Under the pieces are notes generated by a model. The model ran no database searches, was not told the origin of the DNA, and worked only from the letters and a program-made list of their open reading frames with translations. A program made the translations under genes and the position numbers. From the NCBI GenBank assembly GCA_965637545.1, contig OZ281500.1, positions 7,440,001 through 7,504,000 of the forward strand: DNA of 64,000 nucleotides, given 5' to 3'. Each line of letters opens with the position of its first letter. Position 1 is the stretch's first letter. The DNA comes from Phallusia mammillata. Taxonomy: Eukaryota. Of this stretch, positions 36,707-39,700 are shown piece after piece.

Positions 36707-39700
36707 TTATTCTCCAAGTCGTTTGGATATTTCCTTGTTTAGTGTTTGTGTGAGAATGTTGGCCAGCTCGAAATGAAACATCTGTACCCTGAATAAAAAA
36801 AAACATGGTGAAAAAGGTTGCATGGACAGCGTGGGTATATAACACAACAAAGCGCTGCCTTCTTCATCGGTTTCCGTAGTGTAGTGGTTATCACGTTCGC
36901 CTAACACGCGAAAGGTCCCCGGTTCGAGCCCGGGCGGAAACATCCTTTTTCGTTTTTGTCATAATCTTAGCCAGGGGTGGGAAACCTTCTTGTTTGTGAA
37001 GGCCGCCAAACGGTTTATAAATAGTCGTTCAGGCCGCACAGACTATTTCTCAGGCCAAGGACAGTGGCATTCAAACATTTTGACTTACAGAATGGTTGAT
37101 GTGCTATTGGACTAACGGTCCAAGCTAAATAAAATTCGTCACTACATTTCCACCCTCACTACAATATTCAGGATTTTATTAAACATAGAAAGTCGCTTGT
37201 TTATCAATATCAATCTAAGAGCAGCTTGTGACATCACAGACGAGTTTAAGACATTCGATTATGCGCAAACAATTGTTCTTTTGCAACACAAGTAAGATTG
37301 TAGAACCTTGGTCTCTTGGCAGTTCTACGGATATCGCTTTGTGTACCAGTACGCAAACATTTCAAAACCGCTGCCCTAGAACCAATCAAACAGTAATGTG
37401 GAATAAAGGTAAAACAAATACGTTTCTGTCTAGTTTTTAGCGCCTGGTGCAGTGTGGATTATCAACATCCTAAATTGTATTCTGTCATCGAAGGCCGCAC
37501 TTAGTGCCCTAAAAGGCCGCAGGTTCCCCACCCCTGATCTTAGCAATCTTTTGCAGTGAAAGAATGAATTACATTTTACACAATCCAACAATATTTAACA
37601 CCTAAATAAAACGCATTTTGCAATCTTACCTATTTGTTAACTGCCCACTTTGTTTAAGTTTAAAGTAAGTATCTTTTGTGCACAAAATTGTTTTTTATGT
37701 CACGTGAATATATCTTTCAAGTTCACAAACATAAAAGACTAACTTGGTTACGGCCGTATCCATGTGCTCCAGTGTCTCCATGTAAAGTTCAATCCAATCA
37801 AGATTTGTAACTAAATCTTCTTGAATAACGTAATCGTCGTTACGAAGGGATTGTTGAAAAGACTTCACCATCTCGTAAAAGTTTCCACAATCCTTTTCAA
37901 TCTGTTTAGCCTGTAGTTTTCTAAAACAAAAGAAAAAAATGTTTCCGCCCGGGCTCGAACCGGGGACCTTTCGCGTGTGAGGCGAACGTGATAACCACTA
38001 CACTACGAAAACACACGGATGATGTGCCTCAAAGCGCTATTAAGTTGAACGCTGTATTTCTAAAGAAACAGCAATTTGTATTTTAATCTATTTGCGCTAA
38101 TACAATATGCGTACCGTACATCCTCATGCTGCCGATGCAAAATACTTTCCTTTTTCCTTGCCAAGGTGGCTTCTTTTTCTGCAATTACCTGAATGACAAA
38201 CGACGTTACGAAAACAGCAATCTACGTATCTGTCCAAAAACGTACACATTAAATGCAAAGATGCGAGAACCTGTTCATGATATGTTTCGTTGGCTTCTTG
38301 AATGTTCATGATGTTGACACCAATAAAAATGTTGAAAATTAGAAAGTGACCGGCAACAATAAATAGAATCGTATAAATTCGAGAATTTAAAGTCGTGCGT
38401 TCGTCCATTTCGATTTGTGCGTCGAACCAACCATCCACCTTAAACATATTTTGTACTGTAAGATCATTTTCTATCAACACGCAACCGCATGAAACCATGA
38501 AACTGATTGAAAATGAATTTATCGATCACAAATTAGTTGTTTCATGTTATAGGGGAAGTCCCAGTTGAACAGGAAAATGTCGTGTTTGTAAATGTAAATT
38601 GTGATTTGTGAAGTTGTGTAAATGCATAGTGCATTAATTGCGGCTTGGCACGTTTGTTTATGTTTGCTTAAATAGAAGCAGTGCATGGTTATCATTGTGT
38701 TAACTTTGTAAATTTTAACAAAAACTTTTTCTATGTCAGATACAAGCACATCAAACAAAGTGGCATAGACATTTGTTCACAACGCTAGCCGCCAGAAATG
38801 ATGTCAAGTATGCACCATGACTTGAAGCAGGTGATAATGACCTCATGGAAGGATAGGTGGACAGAAAAAAAGTGGTCTGCCCATATTCGAAAGTATCTGG
38901 TGCATTCATCAGATGTTTTTCATGTTGCTGATGCACTGGTTTCACAAGCATTTATTGGACCATCACCAAATAACTTACTTCTGGAATACATATGGCATGC
39001 TCTAAACACAGGACTACTGTCATACGGTTCAGTAATAACAGCCATTTCAAAACATGAAGAACTGCATAAGGTTGAAAGTACAAAAGGTGTGTACAAACTT
39101 TTGCAGGAATTGATTGATATTCTCAATGGTGGTCCTATTATTGAGGATGGTATGGACTTGTGCTGTTCATTACGAATGATTCTCCAATGGCTGTTAAGAA
39201 ACATAGAGCAGTACCTTAAAGGGGTTCATGATGTGTATGTCAGTGTTGCTGAGGATTTGCTCAGATTGAATTGTTTCACCCTTGGACAGCTGACAACCAA
39301 ACCTAGAACTTCAGCTTTACTGACAATTGCCAGATTTGAAGAAAGTGGGGTTTGGAGTCATATTGAAACTGACCTTGCAGTAATCAAAAACAGGGCTGGT
39401 CAGCATGCATTACATGCAGAAATTAGTGCATCATGTCACAATGTTTCACAGCTATCAAGGTGTTCTATTGTACCAAAGCCATCATACCCCCACAACAGAA
39501 CAGCATCAATCTGTTTGCCTGTATCAAGTTTGTTGATGATAGAAGTTGAAACAGTTAAGCTCACTGACCATAATGGTATATCGCAACAGCTTGTTTTGTT
39601 GTCCCAAATACTTGGTCTTTCAACTGCCCAGCTGTTGTATCACAGCATACAAACATGCCTAATGTGCTATCTGGATGCTGTACAAAATCACACCAATTCT

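Follow-up and report, generated by a model that had tools for sequence, protein, structure and literature searches.

We examined if two tRNA-Val genes, lying in opposite orientation in the introns on either side of exon 8 of the Phallusia mammillata CatSper3 gene, influence how that exon is spliced. All positions are those of the window, i.e., the whole 64-kb stretch of DNA analysed. The original prediction was that the two near-complementary tRNA segments form a duplex within the pre-mRNA and play the part of inverted Alu elements, yielding a circular RNA of exon 8 or a channel without part of its tail. Taken as a whole, that interpretation was partly supported. The explanation that we consider probable is that this is an ordinary tRNA-Val pair, that the duplex is likely a by-product of it, and that exon 8 is likely included in most transcripts.

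The gene hosting the pair is CatSper3, which reads along the minus strand as nine coding exons with GT-AG borders and encodes 414 aa with no internal stops; exon numbers refer to coding exons only, and the model was built from sequence and homology rather than transcripts. The product is 80% identical to Ciona CatSper3 and 78% to Clavelina CatSper3. The top PDB match for the Ciona orthologue was 7eeb_C (CatSper3; E=1.4e-59), compared with 1.4e-17 for 7eeb_B (CatSper2), and Pfam Ion_trans matched 3 of the 5 CatSper exons scanned; the gene has both the character of a six-TM Ion_trans subunit and orthology to a named CatSper3. It is single-copy, exon 8 being matched once across the genome. Exons 1 to 6 are at 43374-43244, 42972-42810, 42716-42585, 42494-42360, 42146-41964 and 38438-38271, with the pore motif TVDGW split across exons 5 and 6. 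These are followed, on the same strand, by exon 7 (38115-38188; 74 nt), intron 7 (37921-38114; 194 nt), exon 8 (37744-37920), intron 8 (36789-37743; 955 nt, or 382 nt without a transposon and one copy of its target site) and the coding part of exon 9 to the stop codon (36707-36788), which is 54-61% identical to three homologues. The homology-based model gave the same borders for exon 8 as first proposed (177 nt, phase 2-2). The exon encodes residues 329-387, within the cytoplasmic tail after S6, and skipping it would keep the frame and remove those 59 residues. Length divisible by three is found in 5 of the 7 internal exons, so that an in-frame exon 8 is unremarkable.

ARAGORN found three tRNA genes in the 64-kb window. 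tRNA-Val(AAC) (36870-36942, plus strand) lies antisense in intron 8 with its 5′ end 81 nt from exon 9; tRNA-Val(CAC) (minus strand; ARAGORN 37939-38013, 73-nt body 37940-38012) lies sense in intron 7, with the exon 7 donor 102 nt upstream. ARAGORN and the nine-exon model agree on this placement, which is also that of the original prediction. The third gene, tRNA-Leu(TAA) (34484-34567, minus strand), belongs with them to a loose 3.5-kb tRNA cluster. Re-comparison of the two Val bodies, inverted around exon 8, returned the count reported before: 71 of 73 positions identical, with differences at positions 5 and 34. The difference at 34 is the anticodon and is a mismatch in the duplex; that at 5 makes a U5-G68 wobble in the acceptor stem, and a wobble in the duplex too. 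Judged from the sequence, both differences fit tRNA function.

Both bodies can form a cloverleaf with a Val anticodon, and both genes have T-run terminators: T7 for the CAC gene, and two T5 runs (36946-36957, plus strand) that are the likely Pol III terminator of the AAC gene. The bodies are conserved (97-100% identical to unlinked copies, with the AAC gene identical to copies on C1 and C6) and the flanks diverged, the upstream flanks of the pair showing no more likeness than shuffled sequence (p=0.28, 300 shuffles). Both are therefore likely ordinary nuclear Pol III tRNA genes. Rfam gave 0 matches at E<=0.1 between the two. A recent duplication of the pair was considered and rejected, the upstream flanks being unrelated.

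An identity of 71/73 is not beyond expectation for this family, since AAC and CAC copies within arrays are 72/73 identical (2 of 2 comparisons) and the AAC gene equals two unlinked copies; the complementarity is explained by selection on tRNA function. Gene conversion between the arms was also considered and is unsupported, the G52-C62 pair being present in three unlinked copies as well and the window pair being less alike than the array copies.

The position of the two genes is another matter from their likeness. A 28-mer common to both occurs at 253 places in the genome, i.e., there are at least 253 tRNA-Val-like copies, and among the 100 places listed, 99 are on C6 (40 candidates were scored in each genome DNA similarity search). 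The exact 32-mer of the 3′ half with G52-C62 was found 4 times in 240 Mb, two of them at this locus, and a fifth dispersed tRNA-Val copy lies on C8. For random placement of 5-20 dispersed copies, the chance of two falling within 1.1 kb is 1e-4 to 2e-3; the co-location of the two Val genes is more than chance. According to PMC2888827, pairs of clustered tRNA genes are more frequent than expected by chance in the majority of eukaryote genomes, and local duplication is the suspected cause. The window pair fits the definition given there of a homogeneous anti-parallel tDNA pair (same amino acid, opposite strands, less than 1000 nt apart), with a gap of 997 nt, and it resembles those pairs in being of one isoacceptor family, convergent and in a small cluster. 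It differs from what is described there, in passages that leave host-gene splicing aside, in that the two genes occupy neighbouring introns of a single Pol II gene and are separated by an exon.

Inverted repeats and tRNA genes were scanned in a sample of 864 kb (0.4% of the genome), 30 kb of which was chosen for holding tRNA-Val. The pair is the only long inverted repeat within window positions 33-42 kb and the sole one (arms >=60 bp, >=90%, gap <=2 kb) in the 434 kb surrounding it; the other 430 kb sampled held 4, all in one 100-kb stretch of C1. Those on C1 (10024902-10072983) are near-perfect, with arms of 160-960 bp (92-99.6%), and fall within 50 kb. The 834 kb of untargeted sample, window included, held 6 tRNA genes outside one stretch with a 237-gene array, and 3 of these 6 belong to this window. 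In each of the 7 scanned array loci the Val copies were parallel, and each of the three remaining dispersed Val genes stood alone within 10 kb. Same-isotype inverted tRNA pairs thus look uncommon in this genome, which counts against regarding the duplex as a by-product.

Some features of the tRNA arrays were seen in passing. Large tRNA-Val(AAC/CAC) arrays, with tRNA-Arg on the opposite strand, lie at about 18.52-19.07 Mb of C6; their Val copies carry a compensated change of the 52/62 pair, and in one array locus (L045) three copies were called with a four-base anticodon, TCTA. The 237-gene array lies on C4 (8000001-8100000), with Leu(TAA) and Ser(GCT) among the rows listed. At least two 83-nt copies there (8052791 and 8053564) have Leu-type flanks and a TAT anticodon, and are possibly Leu-body tRNAs that would read AUA.

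The sense gene overlaps the signals of the exon 8 acceptor. Its 3′ end sits 19 nt before the acceptor, and those 19 nt (37921-37939, minus strand) comprise the likely Pol III terminator of the CAC gene (T7, 37939-37933), the pyrimidine tract and the AG. By the AG-exclusion rule, a branch point is placed downstream of the last upstream AG; the nearest upstream AG is at -35, the last ~14 nt of the CAC gene are within the AG-free zone upstream of the acceptor, and the branch point of intron 7 is thus likely within these last 14 nt of the tRNA; we would expect it between -33 and -18. Matches to yUnAy occur only at -58 and -120. The match at -58, in the anticodon loop, was considered as branch point and is unlikely, with AGs at -49 and -35 before the acceptor.

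When exons 7-9 were folded, the tRNA arms were predicted to pair at a mean probability of 0.97, with a predicted duplex core of -150.6 kcal/mol versus -20.8 and -24.9 for local folds; the local-fold energies are rough, and ViennaRNA gave no cloverleaf for the sense arm. The T5 runs of the AAC gene read as A-runs in CatSper3 pre-mRNA and are predicted to pair with the exon 8 pyrimidine tract, so that the helix extends over it: predicted pairing with sequence beyond exon 8 was p>=0.89 from -40 to -13, and p 0.59-0.85 from -12 to -5. Equilibrium folding leaves out proteins and timing, and it over-predicts occlusion, since before the second arm exists the same folding already leaves the tract largely paired locally (unpaired probability mostly 0.04-0.3, -16 to -1). 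A strong intronic duplex is, in this model, thermodynamically plausible. The duplex first proposed stands as a predicted pairing and not as an observed structure. Comparisons of the pair, its flanks and its family gave no sequence sign of selection for the duplex.

A circular RNA would be formed if the arms paired across exon 8 and the 177-nt exon were back-spliced. The comparison is with the inverted Alu pairs of ZKSCAN1 and HIPK3 (PMC4201285, the part on minigenes), which, as here, have a reverse-complementary arm in the intron on each side of the exon; 30-40 nt of inverted sequence sufficed in those human minigenes, the arms here are 73-86 nt (73 nt for the tRNA bodies), and the predicted duplex is very stable. 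The predicted helix, however, covers the branch zone and tract of the acceptor that back-splicing also uses, extending to about -5 over a branch point placed by rule, whereas an Alu-type locus has its branch point and 3′ splice site outside the helix. The minimal upstream intron of ZKSCAN1 has 87 nt, of which 40 nt are Alu and 47 nt are left for branch point and 3′ splice site (same source), compared with 19 nt from arm to exon here. In the ZKSCAN1 series, exons of up to 400 nt gave few circles or none; the need for more than about 400 nt is a tendency and not an absolute rule, and exon 8 is well short of that length. The second arm is, moreover, 801 nt away from the exon 8 donor. The arms also differ from Alus in being Pol III genes under their own selection, one of which overlaps the branch zone and tract. 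Because the duplex would bury the acceptor signals that back-splicing needs, and because the exon has only 177 nt, the circular RNA of the original prediction appears extremely improbable. That inverted SINEs promote editing, and Alus circular RNAs, is general background (PMC8143547, a review, in part). We do not class the window locus as an Alu-type circular RNA locus; it could behave as a loop-out cassette exon. At most some exon 8 skipping, or retention of intron 7, fits the modelled duplex geometry.

The extent of skipping would depend on a race, because the arms pair only once both exist. The second arm begins 978 nt past the exon 8 acceptor, and over half of this spacing is a 565-bp non-autonomous DNA transposon (MITE; 36972-37536) that has terminal inverted repeats and is flanked by a perfect 8-bp target-site duplication (36964-36971 and 37537-37544). 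The element is presumably hAT-like, going by the 8-bp duplication. Near full-length matches numbered 40, this copy included, from 40 scored of 593 candidates, and the insertion is recent. Without the transposon the spacing is 405 nt, so that older alleles ran a tighter race; so large a change of spacing suggests weak constraint. Assembled contigs from 4 of 17 runs, no run being recorded as RNA, were compared with 36960-37925; they left exon 8 uncovered, gave no joints, matched only the transposon and resembled other genomic copies of it, and thus carry no weight either way on a circular RNA or on skipping.

In human cells, median splicing (branching) occurs 160 nt to 1 kb past the 3′ splice site (bioRxiv 10.1101/2021.10.18.464728, in the portion on its timing). 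In a first-order race model with these medians (160-1000 nt), 1-50% of transcripts are still unbranched at the moment the second arm appears, a share that becomes 15-74% if the transposon is taken out; the rates are human and may not be the ascidian's. Modelled in this way, the race between intron 7 splicing and the duplex is not one-sided, and this speaks against a mere by-product, as does the somewhat later start of short introns (same preprint portion). Earlier binding of splicing factors would presumably lower the unbranched share.

One alternative is a kinetic switch: in an appreciable, or a regulated, fraction of transcripts the duplex would win the race, masking the exon 8 branch zone and tract and drawing the donor of exon 7 close to the acceptor of exon 9; the product would be an in-frame CatSper3 without 59 residues of its cytoplasmic tail, or a transcript retaining intron 7. 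We regard this as unlikely. The predicted pairing of -40 to -13 beyond exon 8 would favour it, as would loop-out distances of 102 nt (exon 7 donor to helix) and 81 nt (helix to exon 9 acceptor), the kept reading frame, and a race model permitting up to 50% (74% without the transposon). Against these must be set the over-prediction of tract occlusion by equilibrium folding, the failure to see any sequence sign of selection for the duplex, and the conservation of the segment that would be lost. Exon 8 was covered in 19 of 22 homologues, with 98-100% of it aligned; the remaining three are two fragments of other regions and one protein ending in exon 7. An internal exon 8 deletion was found in none of the 22 (all proteins of other species, in which introns are out of view). 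Identity over exon 8 is 64-80% in ascidian homologues and 29-44% in distant ones, and the segment is conserved as far as Thecamonas. The four annotated Clavelina CatSper3 isoforms vary at the N-terminus or after exon 8. These sequences indicate that the segment is conserved; they are not proof that it is never skipped in Phallusia mammillata. In Ciona, CatSper genes are expressed chiefly in the testis, and sperm of CatSper3 knockouts show reduced motility (PMC10652287, in the part on expression and knockout), so that heavy unregulated skipping of exon 8 should cost fitness.

As a separate observation, the annotated Clavelina isoforms X2 and X3 cease to agree precisely where the exon 8 segment ends, a sign that the last intron is processed variably in a second ascidian. 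Two metagenome scans, one with the CatSper3 alignment and one with the nested MED24, found no such locus.

A more elaborate form of the switch would have the tRNA gene fused to the acceptor, and its convergent sister arm closing that acceptor whenever Pol II outruns the spliceosome, as an elongation-rate switch that removes 59 tail residues and whose timer the transposon reset from 405 to 978 nt; we find this quite unlikely.

Effects of a single tRNA gene, with no duplex, were weighed also. RNase P/Z might cut the sense tRNA out of the pre-mRNA, or Pol III complexes might slow Pol II, in either case damping CatSper3; or CatSper3 transcription might raise the supply of tRNA-Val in testis. Five nuclear tRNA genes, put into the intron of a reporter, reduced the amount of its mRNA (PMC7722341, the reporter experiments), in C. 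elegans the expression of an intronic tRNA is influenced by the promoter of its host gene (PMC4999229, the part on expression), and tRNA processing has been used to free guide RNAs from Pol II transcripts (bioRxiv 10.1101/342485). At this locus, a cut after the discriminator base would, by its position, separate the branch zone from the tract. Such effects would apply to any sense intronic tRNA with no need of an inverted partner, however, and with at least 253 tRNA-Val-like copies in the genome two more would add little supply. We consider an explanation of this kind very unlikely.

Intronic tRNA sequences in either orientation can affect host transcription or splicing, and the window genes resemble in this the intronic tRNAs of C. 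elegans (PMC4999229) and the nimtRNAs (PMC7722341), so far as the relevant parts of both papers go. The nimtRNAs are mitochondrial-derived and enhance splicing, whereas nuclear tRNAs lowered mRNA in that reporter; the window genes are, unlike nimtRNAs, canonical nuclear tRNAs, one sharing bases with a splice acceptor. Of the tRNA genes of C. elegans, 44% lie in introns, the share expected by chance, and the pairings of intronic tRNA and host are conserved and argued to be adaptive (PMC4999229, same part); the latter is a further point against a by-product. A likeness at the level of prediction is in a preprint on human dsRNAs (dsRNAscan; PMC11838218), with four conserved dsRNAs predicted between inverted tRNA genes, some in transcribed introns. 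These are conserved across species and are named only as a caveat, in a passage that mentions neither a bracketed exon nor an overlapped acceptor; the one supplementary file of that preprint searched held no tRNA entry. A literature search, with most subscription journals outside it, turned up neither a description of this locus nor a case in which inverted nuclear tRNA genes cause an exon to be skipped.

We return to the ordinary tRNA-Val pair as the preferred explanation. The two intact genes probably arose long ago by local duplication and have been held similar by selection on their function as tRNAs, as intact bodies with T-run terminators, unrelated upstream flanks and an identity that is the family default would suggest. 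The T-run of the sense tRNA serves also as pyrimidine tract of the exon 8 acceptor. The arms are predicted to pair once both exist, the helix covering the tract by way of the A-run from the second terminator. The 194-nt intron 7 would usually be committed or branched before the second arm emerges 978 nt on, so that the duplex mostly could not form. Those transcripts that lose the race would make up a low level of noise, with exon 8 skipped or intron 7 kept, and with the acceptor buried they should not circularise. If the pair is ordinary, then a splice acceptor and a tRNA gene can have bases in common, an essential fertility gene can tolerate a near-perfect intronic duplex, and the locus would be a natural test of splicing versus folding kinetics. 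Were skipping real and under regulation, canonical tRNA genes would be counted with SINEs among the structural regulators of splicing, and alleles with and without the transposon would be a built-in experiment.

The surroundings of the pair may bear on its transcription. An intronless MED24 reading frame (38798-41707, plus strand), the only Med24_N match in the genome, is nested antisense in CatSper3 intron 5, and its start is ~360 nt from CatSper3 exon 6; it is a speculation that divergent transcription from the MED24 promoter could cross both tRNA arms in any tissue. On the other side lies the last exon (36358-36645, plus strand) of an uncharacterised conserved gene, the orthologue of LOC100184116, whose stop is ~60 nt from the CatSper3 stop on the opposite strand. 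This exon matches a protein assigned to Phallusia mammillata at 99% identity. The 3′ UTRs of the two genes likely overlap, and that of the LOC100184116 orthologue, if long, would extend as far as the AAC tRNA. Upstream of CatSper3, at 44488-44987, another small element was recognised by eye; it too has terminal inverted repeats and an 8-bp duplication of its target.
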